Source: Chloroflexota bacterium (GTDB taxonomy: Bacteria; Chloroflexota; UBA11872; VXNJ01). From it: a stretch of 64,000 bases of DNA. The notes below the pieces were generated by a model. The model was not told the origin of the DNA. It saw only the letters and a program-made list of their open reading frames with translations, and made no database searches. Location of the stretch: assembly GCA_965217845.1 (NCBI GenBank), contig OZ244573.1, positions 1,976,610 to 2,040,609 of the forward strand, given 5' to 3'. Below are positions 6,183 to 33,888 of the stretch, in pieces (position 1 is the first letter of the stretch; the number at the start of each line of letters is the position of its first letter). A program made the translations under genes and the position numbers.

Positions 6183-6226
6183 AAATCGGCCGGCGGCAAT
6201 TGGTCAGGGACAGCGTCACCGCAGCG

Positions 6227-6754
6227 ATGCAATCGGACTTGGTATATCTGGGATTGGGCAGCAACCTGGGTGATCGCTACCGCCAGTTGCTGGCGGCGCT
6301 CAAGCTGCTGGGACCGCACCTGGGCGGCATGGAGCATTCGTCGGTTTATGAATCGCCGCCGTGGGGCATTTTGGACCAGCCGAGTTTCCTCAACTGCTGC
6401 TGCAGCGGGCGCTGGGAAGGACGACCGCAGGAGCTGCTGCGAAAGATTAAGGCGATTGAGGCGCGCTTGGGTCGCCGCCCGACGCGGCGCTGGGGAGAGC
6501 GGCTGATCGACATCGACATCCTCATCCTGGGCGATGTCGTTATCAGCACGGCGGATCTGCAAATCCCGCACCCGCAGCTGGCCAATCGCCGGTTCGTCTG
6601 CCGACCGCTGGCCGATCTTTCTCCGGACCTGGTGGTTCCCGGACTGGGCGCGAGCGTTGCGGCCCTTGCCGACAGACTGGCCGCCAGCGAATCATTAAAC
6701 CTCTGGCGCGAACGGGAGGAAGTGGCCGCCGACCGGCTCGCGGACGGATCCTGA
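6227..6754 (+). CDS. folK: 2-amino-4-hydroxy-6-hydroxymethyldihydropteridine pyrophosphokinase (HPPK)
   Basis: VYLGLGSNLGDR … WGERLIDIDIL motifs typical of HPPK. The ORF track starts at 6200; the internal Met at 6227 sits just before the conserved N-terminus. Confidence 0.85.
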   Translation: MQSDLVYLGLGSNLGDRYRQLLAALKLLGPHLGGMEHSSVYESPPWGILDQPSFLNCCCSGRWEGRPQELLRKIKAIEARLGRRPTRRWGERLIDIDILILGDVVISTADLQIPHPQLANRRFVCRPLADLSPDLVVPGLGASVAALADRLAASESLNLWREREEVAADRLADGS

Positions 6755-12521: not shown

Positions 12522-12526
12522 TAGGC

Positions 12527-12566
12527 AACCGGCGCCGGCCCGCAGCTGCGGGCCGGCGCCGGTTGC
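12527..12566. terminator. Perfect 40-nt palindrome (20-nt arms) between convergent genes; probable bidirectional terminator hairpin
   Basis: CAACCGGCGCCGGCCCGCAG|CTGCGGGCCGGCGCCGGTTG lies between the stop of paralog 2 (12521) and the stop of the minus-strand permease (12585). Confidence 0.6.
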
Positions 12567-12584
12567 TCGGCTTAGCCGAACTGT

Positions 12585-13886: not shown

Positions 13887-14008
13887 GCACACCCCCCAAA
13901 CGTCGCAAGCCCGAAGGCTTGTCACTGAGTCCTGACGGACTCGCGCCACCACCGCCATTCTATGTTTTGGCGGCCGGCGCCTGACCGCGTCGGAACGCGG
14001 CCTATGCA

Positions 14009-15419: not shown

Positions 15420-18071
15420 ATGTCGCAATCGATCAAATGGGTCTACCTGTTCAACGAAGGCGACCAGTCCCTGCGCAACCTCTTGGGGGGCAAAGGGGCG
15501 GGCGTTGCCGAAATGACCCGGTCCGGAATGCCGGTTCCGCCGGGGTTTACGATCACCACCGACGCCTGTCGCACCTACTTCGACGCCGACGGACAGTTTC
15601 CGGAAGGTCTCGAACAACAAATCGGCGCCGCCCTCGAGGCGGTCGAGCGCGAGACCGGTAAACGGTTCGGGGATCCCCAGAACCCGCTTTTGGTTTCGGT
15701 CCGTTCGGGGGCCCGGGTCTCGATGCCGGGAATGATGGATACGGTCCTGAACCTAGGGCTCTCGCAGGCCACCTTAAAGGGCCTTCAGGAGCTCAGCGGC
15801 CAATCGCGATTTGCCTATGATTCCTACCGCCGCTTCGTGCAGGGCTACGGCTCGATCGTGCTGGGATTGGAAAGTCGCCGTTTCGAGCACATCATCCAGA
15901 CCCACAAGGACCGTCTCGGCAAACCCGAGGACTCCGAGCTCAGCAGCAGAGATTGGAACGCGGTCGCGACCGACTTCAAAAATCTGATCCAAGCGGAGAC
16001 CGGCAGCGCCTTCCCCGAGGACCCCAAGGACCAGCTCTACGGGGCGATCCGGGCGGTGTTCGACTCCTGGCACGGGCGCCGCGCGATCGACTACCGCAAT
16101 TTCCACGGGCTGCCACATAACTGGGGAACCGCCGTCAACGTGCAAACGATGGTTTTCGGCAACATGGGCGAAAACTCGGGCACCGGCGTCGCCTTCACCC
16201 GCAACTCGGTCACCGGCGATCGTGAGCTGTTCGGGGAATACCTGCTCAACGCCCAGGGCGAGGACGTGGTCGCCGGCGTCCGCACGCCGGCTCAGATCGC
16301 AACTCTGGCCGACCAGCTGCCGGATGTGTATGCCCAATTCCAGGCCCATGCCGAACGTCTCGAAATGCACTACGGCGACATGCAGGACCTGGAATTTACG
16401 ATCGAGGAGGGTCGGCTCTGGATGCTGCAAACCCGGTCGGGCAAGCGCAGTCCCCGGGCCGCTGTCAAGATCGCGGTCGACATGGCCGACGAAGGCATCA
16501 TCGACCGCGCCACTGCGCTGGCCAGGGTGGAACCGGCCCAGGTTGATGCCCACCTGCACCCCCAGGTCGACCCGACGATGACCATTGAGCCGGTCGCGGT
16601 CGGCCTGAACGCATCGCCGGGCGCGGCGGTCGGCAAGGTCGTGTTCGATGCCGATGAGGCCGCCGAACGCGGCCGCGCCGGTGAAAGCGTAATCCTGGTG
16701 CGACCGGAGACCTCGCCCGATGATTTCCATGGCATGGCGGTCGCCAAGGCGATCCTGACTGCGCGCGGCGGGGCAACCTCGCACGCCGCGATCGTGGCGC
16801 GGGCGCTGGGTCTGCCGGCGGTAGTGGGTTGCGAACAGCTGCGGATCGATCTGGACGCGGGTACGCTGCGGATCGATAAGACCCTGATCAATGCCGATGA
16901 CACACTCACCGTCGACGGATCAACCGGAAACGTGATCCTGGGCGAAGCGCCACTGATCCCGGGCAAGATCACGCCCGAGCTTGAAACGCTGCTGGGGTGG
17001 GCGGACGAACAGCGCCGCCTCCAGGTCTGGACCAACGCCGACACGCCACAGGAAGCGACCCAGGCGCGCGAATTCGGGGCCCAGGGCATCGGGCTGTGCC
17101 GAACCGAACATATGTTCCGCGAGGAAGATCGGCTTCCCATCTTCCAGGACATGATCCTGGCCGAGACCGAAATAGACCGCCGCGCCGCATTGGACCGGTT
17201 ACTGCCAATCCAGCGTGCCGATTTTTATGGAATCCTCAAGGCGATGGCCTCGCTGCCGGTGGTGATCCGATTGCTGGACCCGCCGCTGCACGAATTCCTC
17301 TCCGGCGTCGAAGAAGAGTTGGCGGATCTGCGCGAGCAGGGCGTTGGGGGCGCGGGGCTGGCGGCGGCCGAGCGCAAGGTCCGGCGAGTGCACGATCTGC
17401 ACGAGGAAAACCCGATGCTGGGGCTACGCGGATGCCGCCTGGGGATCGTTTACCCCGAGATCTACGAGATGCAGGTGCGGGCAATCATTGAAGCCTCGCT
17501 CCAGCTTGAGGTCGAGGGCGTGGACGCCCATCCCGAGATCATGATCCCGCTTATCGGGCATATCAACGAATTGCGCACGGTCGAGGCCAATCTGCGCCGG
17601 ACCGCCGAGGCGGTGGCGGGTGAACGCGGGCGATCTGCTTCGTACAAGTTCGGCACCATGATGGAGGTGCCGCGGGCCTGCCTGACCGCCGGCGAGATCG
17701 CCGAAGTGGCCGAATTCTTCAGTTACGGCACCAACGACCTGACCCAGACCACCTATGGCATCAGCCGCGACGACGCCGAGGGCAAGTTCCTGCTGCAATA
17801 CGTCGAGGACGGGATCCTGCCGCGCAACCCCTTCCAGGTACTGGACCCGATCGGGGTAGGCGAGCTCATGCGCCTGGGAAGCCAGGCTGGACGCGCCGCC
17901 CGCCCGGATATTGAAATCGGCATCTGCGGCGAACATGGCGGCGACCCGGAATCGATCGCGTTCTGTGAGGAAATCGGGCTCGATTATGTCAGCTGTTCAC
18001 CGTACCGGGTTCCGGTGGCCAGGCTGGCCGCCGCGCAAGCGGTGGGAGTCGCCTTAACCCGCGACGTGTAG
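15420..18071 (+). CDS. ppdK: Pyruvate, phosphate dikinase
   Basis: The full-length PPDK signature (catalytic His-bearing phosphohistidine domain and C-terminal PEP-utilizing domain). Start set at MSQSIKWVYLFNEG rather than the ORF track's 15345. Confidence 0.9.
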   Translation: MSQSIKWVYLFNEGDQSLRNLLGGKGAGVAEMTRSGMPVPPGFTITTDACRTYFDADGQFPEGLEQQIGAALEAVERETGKRFGDPQNPLLVSVRSGARVSMPGMMDTVLNLGLSQATLKGLQELSGQSRFAYDSYRRFVQGYGSIVLGLESRRFEHIIQTHKDRLGKPEDSELSSRDWNAVATDFKNLIQAETGSAFPEDPKDQLYGAIRAVFDSWHGRRAIDYRNFHGLPHNWGTAVNVQTMVFGNMGENSGTGVAFTRNSVTGDRELFGEYLLNAQGEDVVAGVRTPAQIATLADQLPDVYAQFQAHAERLEMHYGDMQDLEFTIEEGRLWMLQTRSGKRSPRAAVKIAVDMADEGIIDRATALARVEPAQVDAHLHPQVDPTMTIEPVAVGLNASPGAAVGKVVFDADEAAERGRAGESVILVRPETSPDDFHGMAVAKAILTARGGATSHAAIVARALGLPAVVGCEQLRIDLDAGTLRIDKTLINADDTLTVDGSTGNVILGEAPLIPGKITPELETLLGWADEQRRLQVWTNADTPQEATQAREFGAQGIGLCRTEHMFREEDRLPIFQDMILAETEIDRRAALDRLLPIQRADFYGILKAMASLPVVIRLLDPPLHEFLSGVEEELADLREQGVGGAGLAAAERKVRRVHDLHEENPMLGLRGCRLGIVYPEIYEMQVRAIIEASLQLEVEGVDAHPEIMIPLIGHINELRTVEANLRRTAEAVAGERGRSASYKFGTMMEVPRACLTAGEIAEVAEFFSYGTNDLTQTTYGISRDDAEGKFLLQYVEDGILPRNPFQVLDPIGVGELMRLGSQAGRAARPDIEIGICGEHGGDPESIAFCEEIGLDYVSCSPYRVPVARLAAAQAVGVALTRDV

Positions 18072-18827
18072 CCCTGGCGCGGCTCCGGCGCTTTCGCCGG
18101 GCAAATCGGCCTGGAGCGATAGGATCGCCCCCTTAGTGCCAACGTGGTCGGGTGCATCGGGTTCGAACCGGCGAACCCTCCGGTAACCCAATCCCGTGTA
18201 CAGGCAGCGTGCGGCGGAGTTTCCCTCCAGCACATTGACCGTCATCGAGGCGGCCCCGTCAGCGAGCGCCGCCGCATGGGCGCGGCCGAGCAGGTCCCGG
18301 GCCATCCCGCGGCGGCGTTGCGCCGGCGCCACCGCCAGGGCGATGACGAAGTGGTCGCCCGGCCCGGCGCCGGAAACCATCGGCGGCTCGCCGCGCCGCC
18401 GCCAGGAGCGCGGCACCAGCAGCCGCGGGCCGAGACCGGTGGGGAGGAGTCCGCGCCGCAGCAGCGCCAGGGAATTGAGCGGACCCAGGCTTCTAAGCAG
18501 CGGGGCAACAGTTGCCAGATTGCGGCGCCGCAGCTCGCTGAGCACGCAGCAGGTCACTATCCCCAGAACCTGATCGTCCTCTGCGGCGACCAGGCAGGCC
18601 TCGTGCGAGAAAAGCGTGCCGCGGGCCAGGTACATACGCTCCAACGCGGCCAACGCCCGGCCCGGATCGCCCATGCCCAGGGCCGCCGCCGCCATCGGTC
18701 CGGACGACTCAAACAGCAACTGTGCCGCCCGGCCAACATCGTCGCATCGGCCGCGGCGGATGCAGTACCGCCCGGAGGCCGCGGTCGGAGGCGCGCGCCC
18801 CGCACGCGATTCCGGCAAACTCGGCAT
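18054..18827 (-). CDS. GNAT-family N-acetyltransferase
   Basis: C-terminal acetyl-CoA binding motif (…VIALAVAPAQRRRGMARDLLGRA…); the N-terminal extent is uncertain. Its 3' end overlaps the ppdK 3' end by about 18 nt (convergent). Confidence 0.55.
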   Translation of the reverse strand: MPSLPESRAGRAPPTAASGRYCIRRGRCDDVGRAAQLLFESSGPMAAAALGMGDPGRALAALERMYLARGTLFSHEACLVAAEDDQVLGIVTCCVLSELRRRNLATVAPLLRSLGPLNSLALLRRGLLPTGLGPRLLVPRSWRRRGEPPMVSGAGPGDHFVIALAVAPAQRRRGMARDLLGRAHAAALADGAASMTVNVLEGNSAARCLYTGLGYRRVRRFEPDAPDHVGTKGAILSLQADLPGESAGAAPGLHVAG

Positions 18828-18834
18828 GGCGCCT

Positions 18835-19704
18835 TCAGGCGCGCATTAGCTCGGGAACGTGCCCTTCCATCCAGGTGCGCAGCGGAACATCCTGGGGGCC
18901 GGGCGAGGTGCGTCCGTGATTGCTGGAGGAATAACCCAGCATCTGGCGCATGATGGGGTCGGCCTGCTGGTACCACTCGGCCGGGTAATGCATTTCATCG
19001 CGAGCGTGCAGCCAGCGGTAGCCGTAACCGTAAAAGAGCACCTTGCGGGTTGTCTCGAAATAGTTGGGGGTGGCCGAATGCCAGAGCCGTCGGTCGAAGA
19101 CCACCGCGTCGCCGGGGCTGGCCAGGACCGGCACCGCCCCCTCAGGCTGACCGCGGCCGCCCGGCGGGATCTCGATCTCGTTCCGTAGGTGAGATCCCGG
19201 TACGACCCAGAAGTTGCCGCGCCCGGGCTGGGATACGTCGGTTAAGAAATAGGCGACCTTAACCGAAACCCTGGGCCGCGGATTGGTCTCCAGATCGCGG
19301 TTGAGCTGACCTGAGTCCTGGTGCCAGCCCCAGGTCGGACCGTCGGGGTCGTAAACGCCGCGCTCGCGTCCGGAGACGGTCAAATGGGAGTGGTAGAGAT
19401 ATATGTTCCAACCCAGGATTCCAAACATCTTGGGCAGGATCCGTTCGTAGCAGACCAGGTCGAAAAAGATTTGGTCGAGGCCGATAAAGCCGAGCAGATT
19501 GAACCGCTGCGCCAACGAACTGTCGCGTTCGCCACGTATCAGTTCGCCGCTAAGTCCCTCTTCCCAACAGCGGTCGACGGCAGCCAGGCAGTGCGTGTTC
19601 AATGCCGGGTCCAATGCTCCCGGAAACCGCAAAAACCCGTCGCGTGCAAAGATCTCGCGTTCGTCGTCGGTGAGCAGATGAGCGCCAAAATTTCGCCCAG
19701 GCAT
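18835..19704 (-). CDS. Phytanoyl-CoA dioxygenase (PhyH)-family Fe(II)/2-oxoglutarate oxygenase
   Basis: PhyH-fold motifs with a HxD…H metal triad context (…WGWHQDSGQ…VVPGSHL…RLWHSATPN…). Start trimmed to the ATG at 19704, which has a GGAGG box 7 nt upstream. The longer ORF would overlap dnaG. Confidence 0.75.
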   Translation of the reverse strand: MPGRNFGAHLLTDDEREIFARDGFLRFPGALDPALNTHCLAAVDRCWEEGLSGELIRGERDSSLAQRFNLLGFIGLDQIFFDLVCYERILPKMFGILGWNIYLYHSHLTVSGRERGVYDPDGPTWGWHQDSGQLNRDLETNPRPRVSVKVAYFLTDVSQPGRGNFWVVPGSHLRNEIEIPPGGRGQPEGAVPVLASPGDAVVFDRRLWHSATPNYFETTRKVLFYGYGYRWLHARDEMHYPAEWYQQADPIMRQMLGYSSSNHGRTSPGPQDVPLRTWMEGHVPELMRA

Positions 19705-19899
19705 GTTTCCTCCCGGCTCCCCCTTCAGCATCCGCAAGTATGGCCAACCTACCTGCATCAAAATGGCATCCGCGCGGGCCGGCCGGTAGATTTTTGACGG
19801 CGATCCGATCGGTCCTGGGTCCGGCGCGCCGGCATTGACGACGGCGGGTTCGGAAGTTACCAAAATTGGTGACATAGGAAAGGCGGCGATTGGCAACCG

Positions 19900-21723
19900 A
19901 TGGCCGGAGAAATAGATGAGATCAAGGCCCGTCTTTCGATCGAAGGCCTGGTGGGACGCCATGTCCAGTTGCAGCGCTCCGGCCGTCACCTGCGCGGCCG
20001 CTGTCCGTTTCACGACGAGCGCACACCCTCGTTTTTCGTCTTCCTAGATTCCGGCAACTACAAGTGCTTCGGTTGCGGCGAAGCCGGAGACGCCTTCACC
20101 TTTCTGATGCGGATGGAGAACCTGACCTTCCGCGAGGCGCTGCTGCGGCTGGCCGAGGAGACCGGCGTCAGGCTTGCCCCGTCAAACCAGGACCCGGCGC
20201 GTCGCCAATATCTCGACTCCCTTGCCGGAGCCGCTGAGGCCGCCTGCCGCCACTTTGAGCGTCAACTGACGCAACACCCTCACGGCGAGACGGCGCGCGA
20301 CTACCTGCGCCAGCGCGGAATCGAACCCGACGTGCAGTCCCGGTTCCGCCTGGGTCTGGCGCCCGACTCCTGGGACGGGCTGCTGTCGGCGCTGACCGGA
20401 CAGGGAATTGCGCCCCGGATCCTGCTGGCCGCCGGGCTGGTCCGCCAGGGGCAGCAGCAAAACCTCTACGATGCCTTTCGCGGCCGACTCATGTTTCCGA
20501 TCCGGGCCGCCAACGGCGGCGTGCGCGGATTCGGCGGCCGCACCCTGGGGACCGATCCCGCCAAGTACATCAATACCGGCACCACCGAGATTTTTGACAA
20601 GAGCCGCCTGCTCTATGGCCTGGACCTGGCCCGCCCGGCGCTGCGGCGCCTGCGCCAGGCCGTGGTCGTGGAGGGCTACACAGACGTCATCGCCGCCCAT
20701 GCGGCCGGATTTGAGAACGTGGTCGCGGCGATGGGTACCACCCTGACCGAGCCCCAGTTCCGGATGATCGCCGAGAGCGTTGACCAGATCGTGGTCTGCA
20801 TGGACGGCGATGCCGCCGGCCAGGCCGCCGGGCGCCGCAACCTGGAGCGTATGGATGAATTCCTGGGGCCGTTGGTCTGGCACGAAGGCCAGCTGCGCGC
20901 CGAAATCAAGATTGCGCGGATGCCGCAGGGCGAGGATCCGGACCAGGTCATCCGTACCGACCGCGAACGCTGGCAAGACCTACTTGCGGCGGCGGTGCCG
21001 CTGCCCGAATACCTTTTCGGGGAGATAGTGGCCGCAGCCGATATCAATACCCGCCGCGGCCGTGCCCAGGCCCTGCAGGAGGCGCTCAAATACCTGCGCC
21101 GCCTGGCGCGCGGTGACCCGGTAACCCGTTCCGACTACATCGCCGCCCTGGCTGAACGCCTACAGATACCGGCGGCCGCGATCGAAGCCGAGTTGCGGCG
21201 GCGCCCCGGCGAGGGCCAGCCGGGTGACTTCGGGGCGCCCGTCTCTGCCCAGGGGTCGGTAGCGGTGCCCCCGGAAGACCGGCTGTGCGCTTTGGCAATG
21301 CAGAATCCGGCGCTGTTGCGGCAGTCTGTCGGGAGGACGGCGCTGCCGTTGGCCGCATTCAGCGGTGCGTCCGCGCGGGCGGTGTTCGAGATCCTGTCGC
21401 GACTGCGGTCGTCGGAATCGGCCGAATCGCACCTGGCGCGGCAGTTGGGCCCCCAGGATCGGGAATACCTTGCCCACCTGGCCCGACTCAACGCCGGCCA
21501 GCCGGAACCGGTCACCGACCAACAGGTTTCAGCCGACCTGGCACGGCTTGTGCTGGAGCTGCGGCGGCGCTGGATCACAGCCGAGGCCGAACGCACCACG
21601 CTGGTGCTCGGTAGCGAGACCGACCCGCACATCCAGCGCCAGGCGCTGGCGGCCATGAATGACCTGTATCGCCAGCGCCTGGCAATCGATCGACAGCTCA
21701 TGACCCTGTCGATTTCGACCTAG
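19900..21723 (+). CDS. dnaG: DNA primase
   Basis: CHC2 zinc finger (CPFHDERTPSF…CFGCG), TOPRIM domain (…VVEGYTDVIA…CMDGDAAG…); 607 aa; followed by rpoD (the classic MMS-operon order). Confidence 0.9.
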   Translation: MAGEIDEIKARLSIEGLVGRHVQLQRSGRHLRGRCPFHDERTPSFFVFLDSGNYKCFGCGEAGDAFTFLMRMENLTFREALLRLAEETGVRLAPSNQDPARRQYLDSLAGAAEAACRHFERQLTQHPHGETARDYLRQRGIEPDVQSRFRLGLAPDSWDGLLSALTGQGIAPRILLAAGLVRQGQQQNLYDAFRGRLMFPIRAANGGVRGFGGRTLGTDPAKYINTGTTEIFDKSRLLYGLDLARPALRRLRQAVVVEGYTDVIAAHAAGFENVVAAMGTTLTEPQFRMIAESVDQIVVCMDGDAAGQAAGRRNLERMDEFLGPLVWHEGQLRAEIKIARMPQGEDPDQVIRTDRERWQDLLAAAVPLPEYLFGEIVAAADINTRRGRAQALQEALKYLRRLARGDPVTRSDYIAALAERLQIPAAAIEAELRRRPGEGQPGDFGAPVSAQGSVAVPPEDRLCALAMQNPALLRQSVGRTALPLAAFSGASARAVFEILSRLRSSESAESHLARQLGPQDREYLAHLARLNAGQPEPVTDQQVSADLARLVLELRRRWITAEAERTTLVLGSETDPHIQRQALAAMNDLYRQRLAIDRQLMTLSIST

Positions 21724-23447: not shown

Positions 23448-26400
23448 TTGGCCAAATTGACCAGCACCGCCCACCGCCGCTCCCCGGGTCTACTGGATCC
23501 GGCGTTTGAACACGCGAACTGCGGCGTCGGCGCGATCGCCGACCTTCACGGTCGGCGCACCCACGCGCTGGTAAGCGACGCCCTCACGATCCTTGAGAAC
23601 CTCGCCCACCGCGGCGCCAAGAATGCCGATCCCCTAACTGGCGACGGATCCGGGATCCTGCTGCCGATCGCCGACGAATTCTTCCGCCCCAGCGCCAGCG
23701 CCGTCGGCATAAACCTCCCTCCAGCGGGCCGCTACGGCGTCGGGTCGGTGTTCCTGCCCGCCGACGAGGCCCAGGCCCAGTCCAGCCGCAACCTGATCGG
23801 GGCGATTGCCAGCGAGCGCGGCCAGCGCGTCCTCGGATGGCGAGTAGTACCCACGCGCCGCGGGCACCTGGGTAAGCTGGCCCGCCAGCGGATGCCCAAG
23901 ATCGAGCAAGTCTTCGTGGCTTTGCCCGATGAACACGCCGCCGACCCCGAGGTCGCCGAACGACAGCTGTTCATTACCCGCAAGCTGGTCGAGGCCCACG
24001 CCAACGCGCTGGAGTTGAGTGATCCCGAGACGTTTTTCGTCTGCAGTCTGTCGGTGATGACCGTCGTCTACAAGGGCATGCTCATCTCCACCCAGACGCG
24101 GCCTTTTTTCCCGGATCTGGACGATCCGCGCATGCTGGCCCAATTTGCGATCGTGCATTCGCGGTTTTCCACCAACACGCTCGGCTCCTGGCGCCTGGCC
24201 CATCCCTACCGGATGACGGTCCACAACGGCGAGATCAACACCTTCCGCGGCAACGCCAATTGGATGGCGGCGCGCGAGGCGAGTCTTGACCACCCCGACT
24301 ATCGGGGCCTCGGCACCGACCTGTTCCCCATCATCACCCCCAATTCCTCGGACACGGCCGCGTTTGACAACGTGGTCGAGCTGCTGGTCCGCTCCGGTCG
24401 TCCGCTGGCCCAGGCGATGTTGATGATGGTTCCCGAAGCCTGGGAGCGGCATACGGCGATGCCGCCGGAAATGCGCGATTTCTACCGCTACCACGCCTGC
24501 CTGATGGAACCATGGGACGGTCCCGCGCTGCTGGTGACAACCGACGGGCGGCGCATCGCGGCCCTGCTTGACCGCAACGGGTTTCGCCCGTTCCGTTACA
24601 CGGAGACCTGGGACGGCCGGCTGGTGCTGGCATCCGAGACCGGGGTACTCGGCCTGGAAATCGAGAACGTGCGCTCGCGCGGCCGCCTGGCCCCGGGCCA
24701 GATACTGCTGGTCGACCCCGATGGCGATGGGATAGTCACCGATCAGGCGGTCAAGTCAGAACTTGCGGGTACCAGGCCATACGGACGCTGGCTGGACGAG
24801 AACTTGCTGACCGTGGACGACCTGCCGCCGGCCAAAAGCGCCCCGGCACCGACCGACGTGACCCTGCGCCAAAGGCAGCGCGCATTCGGATACACCTTCG
24901 AGGACCTGACCACTATCCTGCAGCCGATGGGTCTCTCTGGAGCCGAGCCGATCGGCTCAATGGGGCTCGACACTCCGCTGGCGGTGTTCTCAGAGCACCC
25001 GCAGCCGCTCTTTAACTATTTCAAGCAGCTGTTCGCACAGGTTTCCAACCCACCGGTGGACGCGATCCGCGAGGAGCTGGTCACAGCTACCGATACGCTG
25101 CTGGGGGCGCGCGGCAACGTGTTGCTCGACGCGGGCGAGCAGTGCCGCCTGCTGCACCTGGACGCGGTCGTTGTCGACGATTCGAGGTTGGCCCGGATCA
25201 ATGCGCTGGATCGGCTAGGGTTGCGAACCCGCACCCTGGACGCCCTTTACGGGTCGGCCCATGAACCCGGATCGCTGGCCGCGGCAATGGACGATCTGTG
25301 TGCCCAAGTCGATTGCGCCCTAGCCGATGGCTGTACGATCCTGGTGATCTCCGACCGGGGCGCCGATGCCGAGCGGGCCCCGATTCCGGCGCTCCTGGCC
25401 CTTTCCGGGGTGCACCACCACCTGATTCGGACCGGCCAGCGCCTGGCCTGCGGGCTGGTATCCGACACCGGCGAGGCCCTCGACGTGCATTCCGTCGCCT
25501 GCCTCCTCGGCTACGGAGCCCAGGCGGTCTGTCCCTACCTGGCATTCGAATCGATCCTCGCGCTCTCGGCCGCAGGCGAGCTGAATTCACATTCATCCGC
25601 CGACGCCTGCGGCAAGTACATCAAGGGCCTGGAGAAGGGCGTGCTCAAGATCATGTCCAAGATGGGCATATCCACTGCGCGCAGCTACCAGGGCTCCCAG
25701 ATCTTCGAAGCGGTGGGGTTGAGCCAGGAACTTGTGGACCGGTTCTTTACCTGGACACCCACGCGCATCGGCGGCCTAACGCTGGACGAGCTGCAAGCCG
25801 ATTACGCCCGCCGTCAACTGGCGGCCTACCCGCAGAACGGCGCCCTTTCCGGAAGCCTGGAGCTTGAACCGGGCGGGTATTTCCAGTGGTATCGCGACGG
25901 CGAGCGCCACATGCTCAATCCCGCAACGGTTGCCCTGCTGCAGAAGGCGACCGGCGCCAACAGCTACCCGATCTATGAGGATTTTGCCGCCCAGTGCGAG
26001 GTCGAGGATCGCCGCGCCACCACCCTGCGCGGGCTCCTGGATTTTCGTTGGGCGGCCGAGCCGCTGCCTATCGACGCAGTGGAACCGGAGGAACGGATCG
26101 TCCAGCGCTTTGCCACCGGCGCGATTTCGCTGGGAGCCATTTCCAAGGAAGCGCACGAGGCGCTGGCGGTCGCGATGAATTCGATCGGGGCCAAGTCCAA
26201 TACCGGCGAGGGCGGCGAGGACCACCGCCGCTACAAGCCCGACCCCGACGGCTCCTGGCGCAACAGCGCAATCAAACAGGTGGCTTCGGGGCGCTTCGGA
26301 GTAACGACCGACTACCTGGTCAACGCTACCGACCTGCAGATAAAGATGGCGCAGGGCTCCAAGCCGGGCGAAGGTGGGCAACTGCCGGGACGCAAGGTGG

Positions 26401-28022
26401 ATGAATATATCGGCTGGATCCGGCACTCGACCCCGGGCGTGGAGTTGATCTCGCCGCCACCGCACCACGATATCTACTCGATCGAAGACCTGGCGCAGCT
26501 GATCCATGATCTCAAGAACGTAAATCCCTACTCGCGAATCAACGTCAAGCTGGTCGCCGCGATCGGAGTTGGCACGATCGCCGCCGGAGTCGCCAAAGGA
26601 TTCGGGGACGTGGTCCTCATATCCGGTGACTCGGGTGGAACCGGGGCATCACCCTGGTCATCGATCAAACATGCCGGACTACCCTGGGAACTGGGACTGG
26701 CCGAGACCCACCAAGTGCTTCTGGCCAACGACCTGCGCTCGCGGATGGTGGTCCAGACCGACGGGCAACTGCGTACCGGGCGCGACGTGGCGGTCGCCTG
26801 TCTGCTCGGGGCCGAAGAATTCGGGTTCTCCACCCTGCCTTTGGTCACGCTGGGCTGCGTGATGCTGCGTAAGTGTCACCTCAACACCTGCTCGGTGGGG
26901 GTCGCCACCCAGGACCCAGTGCTGCGGGCACGCTTCGCCGGCAAGCCCGAAGCGGTCATCAATTACTTCTTCATGGTGGCCCGCCACCTGCGCGAAATCA
27001 TGGCCGGACTGGGTGTCCGCAGCGTCGACGAGATGATCGGCCGGGCCGATCTGCTTGAACCGCGCCAGGACATCGAGCTGGCCAAGGCCGCGCGCGTGGA
27101 CCTTTCGCGGTTGCTTTACCAGCCGGATGTGCCCCCTGATGTGGGCCATCGCAACATGTTCGCCCAGCAACACGGGCTCAACCACGCTCTGGATAACGAG
27201 ATAATCCGCACCGCCGCGCCGGCGCTGGACGAGGGCCGGCCGGTGCGGGCCCGCTTTGCGGTCCGCAACTCCAACCGGACCCTGCTGACTATGCTCTCCG
27301 GCGAGATCGCGCGCCGTTACGGCGGCGAAGGCCTGCCGCCGGACTCCATCAGGCTCCAATTGAGCGGATCCTGCGGGCAGAGTTTCGGCGCCTTCCTGGC
27401 GCCTGGCATCGACGCCAGGATCGTCGGTGACGCCAACGACTATTTCGGCAAGGGCATGGCCGGCGGCTCGATCACGATCCGACCGCCCGTCAACGCCGGT
27501 TTCCTGCCGGAGGAGAACATCATCGTCGGCAACGTGGTCCTCTACGGCGCCACCGGCGGCAAGATGTTCGTGCGCGGCCAGGCCGGCGAACGCTTCGCGG
27601 TGCGAAATTCGGGCGCTGCCACCGTCGTCGAAGGAATTGGCGACCACGGCTGCGAGTACATGACTGGCGGCATCGTGGTAGTCATAGGACCGACCGGCCG
27701 CAATTTTGCCGCCGGAATGAGCGGCGGAATTGCTTACGTGCTGGACCCCGAAAGGCGCCTGGCGGCAGGGCATTGCAACCCGGATATGGTCGACCTGGAG
27801 ACTCCTGACGAGCAGGATCTGCGGATCGTCAGGGAGCTCCTGGAGGAACATCTTGGCCGCACCGGGAGCAATCCGGCGCGCGAAATCCTGGACGAATTCG
27901 AAGTGCTTGGTTCCGGTTTCGTCAAGGTGATGCCGCGCGATTTCAAGCGCGTACTTACAGAACGGGCCGCGCGCAGCGAGGCCGAGGAACTCACAGCTAT
28001 GGAGCTGGTCCATAACGGTTGA
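23448..28022 (+). CDS. gltB: Glutamate synthase large subunit
   Basis: 1524 aa with an N-terminal amidotransferase Cys (…EHANCGVGAI…), the FMN/3Fe-4S central domain and the C-terminal GXGXG beta-helix domain. Start is TTG at 23448. Confidence 0.95.
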   Translation: MAKLTSTAHRRSPGLLDPAFEHANCGVGAIADLHGRRTHALVSDALTILENLAHRGAKNADPLTGDGSGILLPIADEFFRPSASAVGINLPPAGRYGVGSVFLPADEAQAQSSRNLIGAIASERGQRVLGWRVVPTRRGHLGKLARQRMPKIEQVFVALPDEHAADPEVAERQLFITRKLVEAHANALELSDPETFFVCSLSVMTVVYKGMLISTQTRPFFPDLDDPRMLAQFAIVHSRFSTNTLGSWRLAHPYRMTVHNGEINTFRGNANWMAAREASLDHPDYRGLGTDLFPIITPNSSDTAAFDNVVELLVRSGRPLAQAMLMMVPEAWERHTAMPPEMRDFYRYHACLMEPWDGPALLVTTDGRRIAALLDRNGFRPFRYTETWDGRLVLASETGVLGLEIENVRSRGRLAPGQILLVDPDGDGIVTDQAVKSELAGTRPYGRWLDENLLTVDDLPPAKSAPAPTDVTLRQRQRAFGYTFEDLTTILQPMGLSGAEPIGSMGLDTPLAVFSEHPQPLFNYFKQLFAQVSNPPVDAIREELVTATDTLLGARGNVLLDAGEQCRLLHLDAVVVDDSRLARINALDRLGLRTRTLDALYGSAHEPGSLAAAMDDLCAQVDCALADGCTILVISDRGADAERAPIPALLALSGVHHHLIRTGQRLACGLVSDTGEALDVHSVACLLGYGAQAVCPYLAFESILALSAAGELNSHSSADACGKYIKGLEKGVLKIMSKMGISTARSYQGSQIFEAVGLSQELVDRFFTWTPTRIGGLTLDELQADYARRQLAAYPQNGALSGSLELEPGGYFQWYRDGERHMLNPATVALLQKATGANSYPIYEDFAAQCEVEDRRATTLRGLLDFRWAAEPLPIDAVEPEERIVQRFATGAISLGAISKEAHEALAVAMNSIGAKSNTGEGGEDHRRYKPDPDGSWRNSAIKQVASGRFGVTTDYLVNATDLQIKMAQGSKPGEGGQLPGRKVDEYIGWIRHSTPGVELISPPPHHDIYSIEDLAQLIHDLKNVNPYSRINVKLVAAIGVGTIAAGVAKGFGDVVLISGDSGGTGASPWSSIKHAGLPWELGLAETHQVLLANDLRSRMVVQTDGQLRTGRDVAVACLLGAEEFGFSTLPLVTLGCVMLRKCHLNTCSVGVATQDPVLRARFAGKPEAVINYFFMVARHLREIMAGLGVRSVDEMIGRADLLEPRQDIELAKAARVDLSRLLYQPDVPPDVGHRNMFAQQHGLNHALDNEIIRTAAPALDEGRPVRARFAVRNSNRTLLTMLSGEIARRYGGEGLPPDSIRLQLSGSCGQSFGAFLAPGIDARIVGDANDYFGKGMAGGSITIRPPVNAGFLPEENIIVGNVVLYGATGGKMFVRGQAGERFAVRNSGAATVVEGIGDHGCEYMTGGIVVVIGPTGRNFAAGMSGGIAYVLDPERRLAAGHCNPDMVDLETPDEQDLRIVRELLEEHLGRTGSNPAREILDEFEVLGSGFVKVMPRDFKRVLTERAARSEAEELTAMELVHNG

Positions 28023-28152: not shown

Positions 28153-29493
28153 ATGGGTTGCGGCATCCCGTTCTGCCACACCGCCTGCCCGCTGGGAAAC
28201 AAGATCCCGGACTTTAACCGCCACGTCTACGGGCAGCGCTGGGAAGAGGCGCTCAAGGTCCTGCATTCGACCAACAACTTCCCGGAATTTACCGGCCGCA
28301 TCTGCCCGGCGCCGTGCGAGGAATCCTGCGTGCTGGCGATCAACACCGAACCGGTGACGATCGAGCACATCGAGCGCGAGATTGCCGATTGGGGTTTCGC
28401 CAACGGGTTCATCCGGCCCGAACCGCCGGCCGAACGCACCGGCCACCGGGTCGCGGTGATCGGCTCCGGTCCGGCCGGACTGGCGGCGGCGCAGCAGCTG
28501 AACCGCTGCGGCCACCGGGTCGTGGTCTATGAACGTGACGAATACCCGGGCGGGCTGCTGACGCTGGGCATCCCGGATTTCAAGCTCGAAAAGGACGTCG
28601 TCTTCCGGCGGGTCGATCAACTCGAACAGGAGGGCGTCGAATTCCGAACCGGGGTCAATGTCGGCTCCGATATCGACGGCGACGAATTGCGCGCCAATTT
28701 CGATGCGATTTGCCTGGCCACCGGCGCCAACTACCCGCGTTCGTTCACCATCCCTGGGTACGACTTGGATGGGGTCGTCTACGCGATGGACTACCTGTGT
28801 CAGCAGATCCGCCGCAATCTGGGGCAGGATATCCCCGATTCCGAATTCGTAACCGCGCGTGACAAGAAGGTAGTAATCCTCGGTGGGGGCGATACCGCCG
28901 CCGACTGCCTGGGGACCGCCATCCGCCAGGGCGCGGCCGAAATCCACCAGTTCGACATCCATGAATGGCCCGAGCACCGCGCCCCTGACAATCCCTGGCC
29001 CTACTGGCCGGCGGTCATGCGCACCCGCACTACACCGGCTCACCACGAGGGCGGGATTCGCAATTTCAACGTGCTTGCCCAGCGGCTGGCAGGCACCGGC
29101 AGCCGCGTGCAGGCGCTGGAGGCGATTCGACTTGCCTGGGGCGAGAAGGATGAACGTGGTCGTCCCAAGATGATCCGGATGCCGGGGACGGAATTTTCGA
29201 TCGAGGTCGACCTGGTGCTGATTGCGATCGGATTCGCCGGCCCGCACGGCGAGAGCCTGATGGGGCAATTGGGCGTTGGCTTCGACGCTCGCGGCATGAT
29301 CGCGATCGATTCCGATCAGATGACGACCACTCCGGGGGTGTTTGCCTGCGGTGACGTTCACCGGGGCATGTCGCTGGTGGTGTGGGCGATCGCCCACGGG
29401 CGTGACGCGGCGCGCGGCATTGACCGTTTTCTGACCGGCCGAACCGAGCTGCCAGCAAGCGCAGTGACCGGCGAGTTGGGGGTCGGGCGCTAA
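28153..29493 (+). CDS. gltD: Glutamate synthase small subunit (NADPH-dependent). The first canonical start is given; homology to the GltD N-terminus continues upstream to about 28021
   Basis: Two Cys clusters (CMGCGIPFC…, CPAPCEESC), and FAD/NAD Rossmann motifs (VAVIGSGPAGLAAA, VVILGGGDTAADC). See the finding on the missing canonical start. Confidence 0.85.
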   Translation: MGCGIPFCHTACPLGNKIPDFNRHVYGQRWEEALKVLHSTNNFPEFTGRICPAPCEESCVLAINTEPVTIEHIEREIADWGFANGFIRPEPPAERTGHRVAVIGSGPAGLAAAQQLNRCGHRVVVYERDEYPGGLLTLGIPDFKLEKDVVFRRVDQLEQEGVEFRTGVNVGSDIDGDELRANFDAICLATGANYPRSFTIPGYDLDGVVYAMDYLCQQIRRNLGQDIPDSEFVTARDKKVVILGGGDTAADCLGTAIRQGAAEIHQFDIHEWPEHRAPDNPWPYWPAVMRTRTTPAHHEGGIRNFNVLAQRLAGTGSRVQALEAIRLAWGEKDERGRPKMIRMPGTEFSIEVDLVLIAIGFAGPHGESLMGQLGVGFDARGMIAIDSDQMTTTPGVFACGDVHRGMSLVVWAIAHGRDAARGIDRFLTGRTELPASAVTGELGVGR

Positions 29494-29504
29494 ACTGCGA
29501 TCGC

Positions 29505-29600
29505 CCGGGCCGGGCCGGCGCAAACGGATTCGAACCGGCGTCTTCGGGCGCGTCGCGTCGCCTGATTTTTAGACTCGCAACCGGGTCGATCGCCGGCCAT
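29505..29600 (-). other. tRNA-like fragment carrying a canonical T-arm (GGTTCGAATCC) and a GC-rich stem that could be an acceptor stem; no complete cloverleaf could be folded by eye
   Basis: The minus-strand sequence …GACGCCGGTTCGAATCCGTTTGCGCCGGCCC… contains the tRNA T-loop consensus flanked by complementary GCCGGCG/CGCCGGC 7-mers about 84 nt apart. D-arm and anticodon arm are not convincing, so it may be a pseudo-tRNA or integration scar. Confidence 0.3.
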
Positions 29601-29732
29601 TTCAAGCGGTGCCAATAGCTGCAACGTTACACACCGGGCGATGAACCCACCGGGGTTGACGGTTTGATTCGCAACACGTCCCGGTCAGCGGCACGCCATT
29701 TTCGGATTGGGGGTATCCGTCAGGAGGCAAGA

Positions 29733-29972
29733 ATGGGCGCCAAATCACGCGTCTCGAAATTGGGTTGCGGCCTCGCAGTCCGCATCCCCAAGACCGTCGT
29801 CGAGCAGTGGGGCGTCGACGAGGGGTCGGTCATCGAGATCATCTCGCACGGCGAAGACGTCCTGCTCCGCAAACGCCGGTACAGCCTCGACAATCTGATC
29901 GCCGACATGGATCGCGACCGCCAGGGTCCGGTACAGGACTGGGGTTCGCCGCACGGTTCAGAAACGTGGTAG
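29733..29972 (+). CDS. Type II antitoxin, MazE/PemI (AbrB/SpoVT swapped-hairpin) family
   Basis: 79 aa (MGAKSRVSKLGCGLAVRIPKTVVEQWGVDEGSVIEIISHGEDVLLRKRR…); AGGAGG sits 7 nt upstream of the ATG at 29733. Immediately followed by a PemK/MazF-like reading frame. Confidence 0.65.
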   Translation: MGAKSRVSKLGCGLAVRIPKTVVEQWGVDEGSVIEIISHGEDVLLRKRRYSLDNLIADMDRDRQGPVQDWGSPHGSETW

Positions 29973-30303
29973 GCCGTGAAGACGCCCCTGATCGCGGCGA
30001 CATTATTTGGCTCGTTTTTGCATCCCCGGCTGGACCCGAGCAGGCGGGCCGCCGTCCCGCCCTTATCCTGGGCCCGCGCTCTTACAACATGCGCTCCAGC
30101 GTGGCGCTGGCGTGCCCGATATCCTCGCGGGTCACGGGTTGGCCCTCCGAATCCGGTTGCCTGACCGGGGCCCGTCTCCGGGGTCGTACCGGCGGACCAG
30201 ATCCGAAGCCTGTATTAGGACGCGTGGCGCGCCCGGCATGCGGGACGAGCTCCCCGGAAAGTTGTGGCGGAAGTCCTGGCGAATGCGCGCGCTGCTCGAG
30301 TGA
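29966..30303 (+). pseudogene. PemK/MazF-family toxin gene, apparently frameshifted (N-terminal half in one frame, C-terminal remnant in another)
   Basis: The frame starting at GTG 29966 (overlapping the antitoxin stop) encodes PDRGDIIWLVFASPAGPEQAGRRPALILGPRSYNMRSSVALACPISSRV, closely matching the Kid/PemK/MazF N-terminal half. The expected C-terminal motif (IRTRGAPGMRDELPGKLWRKSWRMRALLE*) appears only in the other frame, ending at 30303. Confidence 0.45.
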
Positions 30304-30439
30304 CAGGGCCCGACGCCATGCCCTGGAGGCGACCCATCGGCGTCGGAGCCAACGCACCCAGGCAGTTTCAGGCAACAAACGCCAACGCGTTGCTGGCGGG
30401 GCGCGGCCGCCGCGGTGCCCCAATCTCATGCCCTTGGCG

Positions 30440-30730
30440 CCCTATTCCAATCCCGGCCGGCAATGAACCTGGCCATCAGTGGACGGTCCTATGGCAAATT
30501 GCACGGTGGCATGTCGCCGGCGGTTTGGGCGAGAACCGATGAAGACGACCACGCCGGGTGCAATTGCCTGCGGCGACGTCCACCGCGATATATCGCCGGT
30601 GGTTTGGGTAATCGCGCACGGTCCCAACGCAGCACGCGGGATTGATCGCTATATAGCTGAGGGGCGAATCTTCCGGCGCGGTCGATTACCGGCGAACTCG
30701 GGGTCGGTCGGTAACAACTTCAATCGCTAA
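30440..30730 (+). pseudogene. Degenerate duplicate of the 3' end of gltD (about 95 codons, about 70% nt identity, at least one frameshift)
   Basis: Frame-A translation …PIPIPAGNEPGHQWTVLWQ… matches GltD …LIAIGFAGPHGESLMGQ…, and frame-B MKTTTPGAIACGDVHRDISPVVWVIAHGPNAARGIDRYIAEGR matches the GltD C-terminus [41 protein letters not shown]. Confidence 0.55.
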
Positions 30731-30865
30731 AGGGTGCCACTACCCAGTTGGCGATTCTCTGCGCGCCGCTCGAACCGGCTGACGATCGATTCGCCAACTT
30801 TGACCGAGATTTTGCTCACGCAAATCTAAGCGGTTCCCGATTCAGGTGCTGGCTCCTGGTCAATG

Positions 30866-31297
30866 TCATCGGAGAACGAGGTAGCGTCTACTTTCGGCCC
30901 CCAATACTGCCCCGGTCGGCACACGGGAATCGAACGTGACAAGTGTTCCGTCGTTTTTGACGGCAAGTGCTAGCAGATAGACGTCCATGAGTTGTTGCGA
31001 CCCCAAAATGTGCGACCTGGCAATCACCTCAAGCTCAAGCAGATTCACATCATCGGCCCAAAATTCGTGTAATTCATTTGCCGTCGCCTCGGCAAGGCGC
31101 ATTGCAACGTCGCGGGGGGCAAGGTTATTGGGGTACGAAGGATTCGACATGACCCTAATGCAACCTAGTTGCGTAATTGGGCAAGAGGCCCATCTGCGGA
31201 CACGGTTGCCCCGCATCCAATTCATGGCCGTCAAATGGTGAACGTGCTTGACGTCAAGAAGCGCGATCAGCACGTTTACGTCAAGCAATGCCCGCAT
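30866..31297 (-). CDS. vapC: VapC-type PIN-domain toxin
   Basis: 143 aa (MRALLDVNVLIALLD…DVYLLALAVKNDGTLVTFD) with conserved PIN acidic residues. Its ATG overlaps the stop of the upstream antitoxin by 1 nt (TGATG). Confidence 0.7.
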   Translation of the reverse strand: MRALLDVNVLIALLDVKHVHHLTAMNWMRGNRVRRWASCPITQLGCIRVMSNPSYPNNLAPRDVAMRLAEATANELHEFWADDVNLLELEVIARSHILGSQQLMDVYLLALAVKNDGTLVTFDSRVPTGAVLGAESRRYLVLR

Positions 31298-31548
31298 CAG
31301 GTCCCAATTTCGTCTCGTATGCGGTTTACAAGCTCGTTGGTAACAACACCACGGCTCGAGTGGAATGGACGAAATCCAATCCCGGACGCGTCGTCGTGCG
31401 TCGAACCCTCGGGCCCTGCAGACAGCGAAGATTCCAACGAGCATCGGATCAGGTCGGACGCAACCTGACCAGCCGTGCGCGATTCGCGCTTGGCAATCTC
31501 CTTAATGGCGAATAGCAGGTCTTCGTCGAGATTCAGCGTGGTTCTCAT
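31297..31548 (-). CDS. vapB: VapB-family antitoxin
   Basis: 83 aa starting MRTTLNLDEDLLFAIKEIAKRESRTAGQV…, the common VapB N-terminus, directly upstream of vapC and translationally coupled to it. Confidence 0.55.
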   Translation of the reverse strand: MRTTLNLDEDLLFAIKEIAKRESRTAGQVASDLIRCSLESSLSAGPEGSTHDDASGIGFRPFHSSRGVVTNELVNRIRDEIGT

Positions 31549-31880
31549 CCGCTGCTCCAAGCAACCTGGAAGGTCGACAGCCAAGGCTACATCACGCATC
31601 GCGCATCACCGTCGCCGAGGTTGCACAAATACCTGACTCCCGAACTCTCGGTTCTCAGGAATTCATGAACGGATTCGCGTGACAAATGGTCATCCCGACT
31701 TGCGTGGCCCGGTTGAACTTCGGTCGCGCTTCGCCGGATTTTTGGCCGATTGCCTCGATCGTGACCAAGGCCGCTGTTGTCTTGACGATCTTGACGGCAA
31801 TCATGCCGGTTGGCGGCTCGCTCCGTCGAATGGCACCGACGCGACGGCAATGCTGCCAATAACGGTCGACCGTCTTCACT

Positions 31881-32993
31881 GTGCCCGGCGCCAGTTGGCG
31901 GGCTGAACGATACCAAGGATCTTCCAGACCCGCTCACCGATCGGGAGCTTGCACCGCAGCGGTCAAATGCCCCGCAAGGGGCTACCCAATCGCCCGAATA
32001 ACACCTGCCGCTTCGATTTTGGCCGCGGCCAAACACTGGAAACAGAGATCTCTGAGAAATCAAGAATCGCTGTTCGCCGCAGGGTCGCTGTGGACGTTTG
32101 AGCGATTCGATGAGCTCCGGCAGTTATACGTTGACCACTCCATCGAGACACCAGAGGGGTTATTGGTCAAACTCAAGCGCCAACTCTCCCCTGGGTCGGC
32201 GGATGCGCCTTGTCTGTTCGCCGAGATGGCCTGGGTCTACGACTTAATCGTGGTGCGCGACCCCAAAAGGCCTCAAACAAAGCGCGACCAAATTCGCCAA
32301 ATCTGGAGTTGGTCGGGTGAAGCCCGGCCCGCAGGACACCGATTGTTGAGGGATGATGTGCTCGGGGCGGGCGTTTCGGACCCCGGAACGGCCTACAACG
32401 TTCGCAATTGGGCCGAGCACCAGTTCTTTATCGTCGCAATGGGCGAATTCTTCCCGATGGGCAAAGAATAGTCGCTGGCGAATTCGTCCTTGATTCCGCC
32501 ATTGAAGCAGTTGGCGGGTTACCCCGGTCACCTCGGGATAGTAGGCACGGCGGCAGCGTTCGACTTCGAACCGGACCCTGTTGACCAGTTGGTTGTGTTC
32601 GGCGGTGTCGAGGTCGAATTCGAGATTCGCGGTCTGTTTGCGACCTCTCGGCGCCGGCAGCAATGCAAGGCTGGGGCGTCGCCCGCGGACCGGTTCTTCG
32701 TTGATGGCACGCAAATTCCGGTCCAAGCGCCAGTACCACCGCGGCGGGCCGTAGGGACCGTTAAGTACGTACTCACCGGGTCAAGATTGTCAGGCGTACA
32801 CGAGTTGCCCAACTCGTCGTTCAAGCCATTCAGTTCCAAATCCATTCCGGGTCCGGGGTCGAGCGCGATTCATACCGGGCGGGGCTTGATAGGTGTATCC
32901 GCCGAAAAACTCTTGTCGACCAATTCCTGCCCTTTAATTACATGGCGAATTCCGGTGGCCGAATCAGCGCGCCGTTGGGCCCAGGAAGGGTAG
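31881..32993 (+). pseudogene. Remnant of a gene of unknown function in the lower-GC islet (5'-truncated; one in-frame TAG at 32469-32471)
   Basis: Two ORF-track ORFs (31881..32471 and 32490..32993) are in the same frame, separated by a single TAG. Strong GC3 bias begins only near codon 60. No recognisable family; local GC is about 52-56% versus about 68% in the flanks. Confidence 0.3.
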
Positions 32994-33057
32994 CAATGTG
33001 CAGAAATTCGACCGTGATTGCAACCCCGAGTGCTGCATGAGATTGCCAGCGCATTAA

Positions 33058-33888
33058 TCAGACTCCGGCTTCGTCAAATGCGCGTCGCAGCGATTGATGG
33101 CCCAGCCGCGCGCTCGCAAACGGATCGTATCCGGGCCGGCGTTGAACCATGACCGAGACTTCCAGGGTTTGAAACCCCGAGTATCCGGCCGCTTCCATCA
33201 GGCGCAGTTCAGCGGCGTAATCGTAATCGTCTTCGCCCGGGACCACGAATTCGTGTTCAGGCCAACGGCCGGTGACCCCTTTCAAATGCGTGTGCAGCGT
33301 GTCGCCGGCCAACAGATTGATCGACGTGTTCAGGTCGATGTCCTGGGCCAGGAAATGGGAATAGTCAAAGTTCACGCCCAAGTTCTGACGACCCAGTTGT
33401 TCCAGCACCCAGGCGGTCTGCTGGGGAGTGTGCAGTGCCGAACCCACATGCGGCTCCAGGGCGATATCGACCGAGGCCGCCCGCGCCGCTTCAAGCACCG
33501 GTGCGAGGTGATCAAGCACCAGCTGGCGCTGACCAACCCAGTTGCCGCTGCGACCACCCACGGTGGTATTTATGGCCGGGGGATTGTCGGAGGCTAATTC
33601 GCACGCCAGGGAGATGGCCCGGTTGAGGCGTTGGTAGCTGCCCGCAAGAGCCTTCTCGTCAACGTCAAGTAATGGTGAGTGGGCCGCAATCGCCGGTAGG
33701 TCCAGGTCAAGTTCATCCAACATGTCGCGCCAACTGCGCACCGTTACCGGGGTCAGGTCCTCAATTCGGGTCGACCAAGCGGGCAGGACGGTGAGCTCGA
33801 CCCCGGCGAACCCCAGTTCGGCGGCAAAGCGCGCAAAGCGTTCGAACCCCACTTGGGGCATGCCCCAGTTCGAAATACCCAACTGCAT
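33058..33888 (-). CDS. Sugar phosphate isomerase/epimerase (xylose-isomerase-like TIM barrel)
   Basis: 276 aa from MQLGISNWGMPQ…; AP-endonuclease-2/xylose-isomerase-like fold motifs. The ORF track's 5' extension (to 34161) is Arg-rich junk. Confidence 0.75.
   Translation of the reverse strand: MQLGISNWGMPQVGFERFARFAAELGFAGVELTVLPAWSTRIEDLTPVTVRSWRDMLDELDLDLPAIAAHSPLLDVDEKALAGSYQRLNRAISLACELASDNPPAINTTVGGRSGNWVGQRQLVLDHLAPVLEAARAASVDIALEPHVGSALHTPQQTAWVLEQLGRQNLGVNFDYSHFLAQDIDLNTSINLLAGDTLHTHLKGVTGRWPEHEFVVPGEDDYDYAAELRLMEAAGYSGFQTLEVSVMVQRRPGYDPFASARLGHQSLRRAFDEAGV

Follow-up and report, generated by a model that had tools for sequence, protein, structure and literature searches.

Defence hot spots and defence islands occupy a fixed position between two core genes, are empty in some relatives, and hold varied, low-GC cargo that consists mostly of toxin-antitoxin, restriction-modification and anti-phage genes, many of them decayed. 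In Escherichia coli, e14 in icd leaves a complete gene, followed by the element and then by a displaced C-terminal fragment, icdC (PMC13626634). Homology-facilitated illegitimate recombination with 3'-end displacement, which leaves orphaned 3' ends and orphan immunity genes, has been proposed for rhs loci and for effector-immunity arrays of the type VI secretion system of Vibrio cholerae (PMC5361080). Here, we describe an islet that shares features with each of these, in a 64,000-nt stretch of an uncultured Chloroflexota genome (assembly GCA_965217845.1, contig OZ244573.1, positions 1,976,610 to 2,040,609, forward strand). We refer to this whole stretch as the window, and coordinates are window positions unless another locus is named. 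The islet (29494-33057, about 3.6 kb) lies between two convergent core genes, gltD (glutamate synthase small subunit) and a sugar-phosphate isomerase/epimerase gene. It has the fixed position, the empty site in some relatives, the varied and GC-poor cargo and the decay of a defence island, and differs in being small and nearly all dead except for vapBC and mazE. The interval is an insertion hot spot in this clade. Our preferred reading, which we consider probable, is that it holds an old, layered and mostly dead defence/addiction islet, the left-hand layer of which (layer A) was gained by homology-anchored displacement of the gltD 3' end.

The nearest species-level relatives available for comparison were Chloroflexota metagenome-assembled genomes (L002-L008), with GltD proteins 91-93% (L002-L005), 84% (L006), 82% (L007) and 69% (L008) identical to that of the window. 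The sister clade includes L002-L005 and L151-L162, and L006, L007 and L008 are outgroups. Within 30-46 nt of the gltD stop, the L006 and L007 sequences already align to the isomerase gene end (window 33065/33101). The two genes are also adjacent in the more distant L008, with a 75-bp gap. Since gltD lies directly beside the isomerase gene in all three outgroups, adjacency is the ancestral state, and 29494-33057 is acquired DNA inserted after gltD. A preliminary description of this DNA had likewise proposed an acquired islet, old and eroding, with addiction and defence genes, and it was right on each of these points. A second assembly of the window species (L001) shares this structure and is 99.83% identical to the window (36 substitutions and 1 indel in 21.3 kb), so misassembly of the window is unlikely.

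Sister-clade genomes carry different cargo after gltD, as follows.

L005 and L152-L162 (most of the sister clade), gltD-isomerase interval: a transaldolase-family gene and a 5'-nucleotidase gene
L151, gltD-isomerase interval: a transaldolase gene and four small open reading frames (ORFs), one of them vapB-like
L002, after gltD: vapC-vapB, a transaldolase gene, a second PIN pair, and type III mod and res
L003, after gltD: a three-gene block, a second partial gltD, a transaldolase gene, and type III mod and res

In L155, L158 and L159, the contig runs out before the isomerase gene is reached, and the stretches fetched for L002 and L003 stop inside or just after res, with the isomerase gene outside them. 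Like layer B of the window, described below, the sister-genome cargo is GC-poor (54-59%, compared to 62-68% for core genes). The transaldolase and 5'-nucleotidase genes are both absent from the window, L006 and L007. Their presence at the site in most sister genomes indicates that the hot spot takes up metabolic genes too, which distinguishes it from defence islands. We conclude that the gltD-isomerase interval is an insertion hot spot in this uncultured Chloroflexota clade. The transaldolase there is fructose-6-phosphate-aldolase-like and the 5'-nucleotidase is a secreted protein of 740 aa; the two genes lie at about 11414-14700 in each of the L005 and L152-L162 loci. It should also be noted that res of L002 is split into two overlapping ORFs (18030-20973) by a probable frameshift, so the restriction system of L002 also looks to be decaying.

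The left part of the islet is enclosed by two copies of the gltD 3' end. The features of this part and of the two core flanks are listed here.

28153-29493, + strand: gltD, functional (Pfam Fer4_20 and Pyr_redox_2)
29264-29504, + strand: repeat copy F, the last ~76 codons of the working gltD and ~11 nt past its stop (local alignment)
29505-29712, no strand assigned: spacer with a T-loop-like match and a hairpin; no homologue in any fetched locus
29733-29972, + strand: mazE, AbrB/MazE-type antitoxin gene, intact, 79 aa (PF04014, 36.3 bits; cut-off 24.7)
29966-30303, + strand: mazF/pemK pseudogene, mazF' (PF02452, 69.6 bits after frame repair)
30304-30492, no strand assigned: spacer between mazF' and gltD', unlike gltD; no homologue in the fetched loci
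30493-30727, + strand: gltD', the displaced and decayed gltD 3' end (repeat copy P; frameshifted, by alignment)
33058-33888, - strand: sugar-phosphate isomerase/epimerase gene (xylose isomerase-like TIM barrel), the right core flank (PF01261, 75.2 bits)

The gltD stop was confirmed at 29493. The start is placed 47 codons further upstream in some public annotations of relatives. The segments 29264-29504 and 30493-30727 are about 70% identical, with an alignment score of 84 compared to 16.2 +/- 2.3 for shuffled sequences. At the protein level, residues 391-437 of GltD match gltD' (E = 1e-13), and residues 433-446 and the stop are found in another frame. A frameshifted copy of the gltD 3' end had been reported previously at 30440-30730, with a length of ~95 codons; the copy is real, but it is limited to ~235 bp (~76 codons), and no gltD similarity was detected upstream of 30493. 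It had also been said to bracket the islet, whereas the repeats enclose only 29505-30492 (988 bp), which is the roughly 1-kb mazE-mazF' segment. In addition to several indels, gltD' carries ~28% private substitutions. At 36 sites that distinguish the working copy from the sister-clade consensus, gltD' matches the consensus at 22, has the working-copy state at 3 and has another state at 11.

An independent duplicate of the gltD 3' end, of about 600 bp and with a 57-nt internal deletion, is present in L003. PADLOC assigns the three-gene block of this locus to NsnA (E = 6.6e-118), NsnB (two ORFs) and NsnC (E = 4e-59), which we take to be a Menshen system. The block (10479-13820 in L003) starts directly after the working gltD stop and fills the whole space between the repeats, given as 3.6 kb. 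The transaldolase gene lies ~70 nt beyond the partial gltD copy, the same spacing as for the complete gltD in L004 and L005. It is clear, for L003, which copy is the displaced one, with the cargo lying between the working stop and the partial copy. In the window, the gene next after gltD' is vapC, which is also the next gene after gltD in L002. As a sign of ancestral context this is only suggestive, because vapBC of the window and L002 are far more diverged than the core genes.

The preliminary description had counted two toxin-antitoxin modules in the islet. While mazE and vapBC are intact, mazF is dead, carrying three or more frameshifts as well as an in-frame TAG. In both modules the antitoxin gene precedes the toxin gene and the two overlap at stop and start. 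No intact PemK/MazF gene lies downstream of mazE. Since mazF is a pseudogene, mazE is now an orphan. In L001, mazF has one extra G at window position 30152 (L001 12001), and therefore one frameshift fewer. A 113-codon ORF is reopened there, but it is open via two compensating frameshifts and 38 internal codons are still out of frame. The assemblies may differ by this 1 nt because of a genuine polymorphism or because one of them is in error. A word-based homologue search with MazE returned only MazE itself, and MazF was used as the query instead. Intact mazE-mazF pairs of the same family were found in L163, L164 and L165. MazE of the window is ~65% identical to, and of the same length (79 aa) as, MazE of these pairs, and the frame-repaired MazF aligns along its full length with intact MazF proteins of 113 aa at 62-67% identity. 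L163 is a sister-clade genome (the contig of L152), in which the intact pair is located at 5768-6342, about 220 kb from gltD, with a pyrimidine-biosynthesis cluster on one side and a GAF histidine kinase gene on the other; its mazE is missing from the gene calls. Nucleotide similarity between the window and the mazEF loci of L163-L165 is confined to 29713-30216. The unrelated location of intact mazEF and the limits of this similarity indicate that the mobile unit is a bare two-gene cassette.

Layer B (30728-33057), to the right of gltD', contains the following features.

30866-31297, - strand: vapC, PIN-domain toxin gene, intact (PF01850, 34.9 bits, cut-off 23.6; TIGR00028, 98.3 bits, cut-off 73.6)
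31297-31548, - strand: vapB-like antitoxin gene, intact, 83 aa, overlapping the vapC start (65% aa identity to its L002 counterpart)
31748-31816, - strand: C-terminal scrap of a type III methyltransferase gene (mod), 23 codons (tblastn, L003 mod residues 887-910)
31992-32471, + strand: N-terminal fragment, ~155 aa, of a McrB-like AAA_5 (type IV restriction) gene (homologue search)
~32451-32860, - strand: N-terminal remnant of a type III res gene, ~137 aa (54% aa identity to L002 res residues 32-137)

The vapC product is 59% identical to that of the vapC in the same post-gltD position of L002, and the gene has a GC content at third codon positions (GC3) of 0.60. The ribbon-helix-helix match of VapB is weak and below threshold (E = 0.04), and no curated family scores above threshold. 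Judged from its genes, vapBC is probably a self-stabilising type II toxin-antitoxin pair, and it is the only complete module. As members of the MazEF/PemIK and VapBC groups, MazE, VapC and the frame-repaired MazF all exceed Pfam/NCBIfam thresholds; the locus departs from those systems in that mazF is a pseudogene, mazE is an orphan and the VapB partner falls below every curated family threshold.

The remainder of layer B had been interpreted as one 5'-truncated, nonsense-interrupted ORF. It is instead made up of three remnants, of type III mod, a McrB-like gene and type III res. The evidence for the mod scrap is weak (62.5% identity, E = 0.004). The McrB-like fragment is 3'-truncated and has no start codon. 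It has 758 matches, the best of which are 580-900 aa long and align via residues 2-158; full-length homologues contain AAA_5 and MrcB_N domains. The res remnant is 3'-truncated with two in-frame stops near its start, and res of L002 carries PF04851 (ResIII). The only intact content of the islet is vapBC and mazE, and the rest is decayed.

The two layers also differ in composition. The islet as a whole had been described as low in GC, with roughly 52-56% given for the DNA beyond gltD', compared to about 68% for the genome. This applies to layer B, which has 57.4% GC (pieces 54-60%), whereas equal-sized windows elsewhere in the 64 kb have a minimum of 62.6% and a mean of 65.5 +/- 1.5%. It does not apply to 29494-30492, where 65.7% GC and a mazE GC3 of 0.81 are both host-like; the GC content of the 64-kb window is 65.1%. 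Layer B is therefore GC-poor foreign DNA, compositionally distinct from layer A.

We propose that layer A (29505-30492) arrived as a bare mazEF cassette of host-like composition, on incoming DNA that consisted of a gltD end followed by mazEF. One end of this DNA would have paired with the resident gltD, and the other would have joined illegitimately inside the resident gltD, ~76 codons before the stop. The resident 3' end would have been pushed downstream as gltD', with an intact gltD retained. A single crossover of a circular fragment, driven by RecA, could have given the same product, and neither route would need an element-encoded integrase. Since only products with a whole gltD survive selection, both repeats would be expected to reach the stop codon. 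The ordering of the layers is interpretive in the same way as this mechanism; layer B holds the intact vapBC and the wreckage of a type III restriction-modification system and a McrB-like type IV restriction gene. The layer A event dates roughly to the split from the sister clade, with mazF and gltD' presumably decaying neutrally since then. We place its age at about that of the lineage because of the 28% private changes of gltD', its working-copy state at only 3 of 36 sites and the multiple lesions of mazF.

This scheme resembles the displacement proposed for rhs and type VI secretion loci. In both cases, the anchor lies in the conserved 5' part, a new 3' end is acquired with cargo, the old end is orphaned downstream and no integrase takes part. 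Orphan protective genes also persist in both (immunity genes there, mazE here). The displaced ends of those loci, however, are variable toxin domains under diversifying selection, whereas here the end of a housekeeping gene is conserved and truly duplicated. We infer the mechanism in this case as it was inferred in theirs.

The preliminary description had instead proposed a single integrative element, whose site-specific recombinase acted at an attB inside the gltD 3' end and which supplied a surrogate 3' end before losing its integrase and eroding. A direct repeat of the target-gene 3' end, ending at or near the stop, is indeed the icd/icdC pattern of e14 (PMC13626634). As with e14 and phage 21 in icd, the inserted DNA has an intact housekeeping gene on one side and the displaced C-terminal fragment of that gene on the other. 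Furthermore, the repeat is real, and relatives carry cargo at a site that is empty in outgroups. However, e14 has its own integrase and is excised at a defined core, while neither an integrase nor a remnant of one is present here or between the L003 repeats. As the preliminary description had noted, no integrase or transposase survives in the islet: all ORFs and fragments fall in other families, and the unassigned stretches, none longer than ~220 bp, are too short to hold one. No recombinase was detected in the repeat-flanked insertion of the window or in that of L003 (screening of L002, L003 and L151 outside these was incomplete). A search for short direct repeats at the two ends of the islet, proposed previously as a check for an att core, gave chance-level matches only. 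The duplicated stretch reaches back ~235 bp from the stop in the window and ~600 bp in L003, so the two independent events have no common crossover point. The cargo also fits such an element poorly. The 988 bp between the repeats is mostly mazE-mazF', in effect a toxin-antitoxin pair only; the three defence genes of L003 fill its interval and leave no space for a lost integrase; and vapBC and the restriction-modification debris of the window lie outside the repeat. A related suggestion, that the working gltD 3' end may itself be element-derived, is not supported, as its last 240 nt diverge from the sister clade by 17.1%, within the 15.8 +/- 4.4% seen across gltBD (gltB, 23448-28022, + strand, is transcribed rightward like gltD). 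We regard integration of a single element as unlikely. A reversed polarity, in which gltD-mazEF was resident and gltD', vapBC and the restriction-modification genes came in together through homology in the isomerase flank and an illegitimate join after mazF, would account for the greater similarity of gltD' than of the window's own gltD to the sister-clade consensus, for the order of genes in L002 (gltD, then vapBC and type III restriction-modification) and for the foreign composition of layer B. Retained ancestral states after an old event would equally be expected to make gltD' resemble the consensus, and its 28% private divergence is about that of a neutral branch of lineage length. Similarity to the sister clade is not raised anywhere along the isomerase flank, and, with no tract of that kind, a recent import of layer B from the sister clade by this route was rejected. 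In addition, vapBC and res are only 54-65% identical in protein sequence to the L002 versions, compared to 91-93% for GltD, and in L003 the cargo is clearly between the repeats, with gltD' in its ancestral context. Polarity of this kind seems to us improbable, to about the same degree as the integrative element.

Direct repeats can also come from tandem duplication, and the source of the window is a metagenome-assembled genome. Tandem duplication of a gltD 3'-end segment followed by deletions and unrelated insertions, or misassembly of the contig, is nonetheless very improbable: the structure recurs in two assemblies with 36 substitutions and one indel between them, copies that are ~30% diverged are not an assembly collapse, a tandem duplication would have copied the cargo too and there is no second mazEF, and gltD' lacks substitutions specific to the working copy. 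Several observations also weigh against homology-anchored displacement itself. No foreign signal was detected in the working gltD 3' end, as divergence shows no discontinuity along the gltBD operon; an invisible donor segment fits a donor of the same lineage without being positive evidence for one, and either such a donor or the lack of any donor tract would be compatible with the divergence seen. No donor arrangement (gltD followed by mazEF without gltD') and no conspecific genome without the insert were found. In particular, the other members of the gltD protein cluster are all ~91% identical and include no conspecific empty-site allele, and a metagenome scan for closer relatives gave no match above 69% identity. 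The junctions are too decayed to show microhomology. The insert could be either the cargo between the repeats or gltD' together with layer B, and we favour the former by analogy with L003. The low protein identity (59-65%) between vapBC of the window and L002 means that their shared position may reflect separate acquisitions. Finally, an integrase could have been deleted cleanly or have acted in trans.

We also considered a broader version of homology-anchored displacement, in which compact cassettes (mazEF here and the Menshen genes nsnABC in L003) spread without an integrase, using a gltD end that they carry as their own homology arm. The gene would be made whole again at every insertion, with its previous end left stranded, and host recombination would give defence genes a recurrent "knock-in" route aimed at a single housekeeping gene. 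This extension is speculative, and we think it somewhat less likely still than the integrative element or the reversed polarity.

The mazE gene has remained open while its neighbours gained about one disabling lesion per 60-100 nt. By a rough estimate, the chance of zero lesions in 240 nt under neutrality is very roughly 0.02-0.09. The ratio of nonsynonymous to synonymous substitution rates is uninformative on selection, as synonymous sites are saturated. Any present-day function is a matter of interpretation: mazE may persist as an orphan antitoxin or as a repressor. That selection has kept it as protection against incoming MazF toxins is a more speculative idea.

The islet adds a further instance of known phenomena, from a phylum that has been little studied, and does not represent a new kind of system. 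It documents a defence/addiction hot spot in a poorly studied, uncultured Chloroflexota lineage. The two independent cassette insertions, each duplicating the end of an essential metabolic gene and neither with an integrase, would serve as a naturally occurring case of homology-anchored gene gain. In annotations, gltD', mazF' and the scraps of restriction genes should carry a pseudogene label.

A tRNA-like T-arm fragment had been reported immediately after gltD. It consists of one exact match to GGTTCGAATCC (11 nt) at 29526-29536 on the minus strand. The chance expectation for this match is 0.06 per window, and at least one match occurred in 6 of 100 shuffles. ARAGORN detected no tRNA at 29526-29536 at its default or 80% thresholds, Rfam had no hit there at E <= 10, and the fold z-score at this spot was -0.26. 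We therefore rejected a tRNA remnant after gltD, as there is no tRNA structure or sequence beyond the T-loop match. A terminator-like hairpin with a T-run (29544-29575, plus strand) overlaps the same spot. It could be the gltBD terminator, although hairpin and T-run patterns are no commoner here than in shuffled sequence. A possible remnant of the isomerase 3' end after the gltD stop (29514-29597, compared to 33045-33140), to which two short repeats had pointed, was also rejected, since the similarity is not significant (z = 2.8) and is absent from other genomes. If real, it would be a scrap of the ancestral gltD-isomerase junction carried with the mazEF segment.

Elsewhere in the window, 10067-11209 and 11379-12521 (both + strand) encode tandem paralogues of 380 aa with 88% DNA identity over 1.19 kb. 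By eye, these look like members of the enolase superfamily (mandelate racemase / galactonate dehydratase-like). They form the only repeat that reached E <= 1e-6 when the window was compared with itself.

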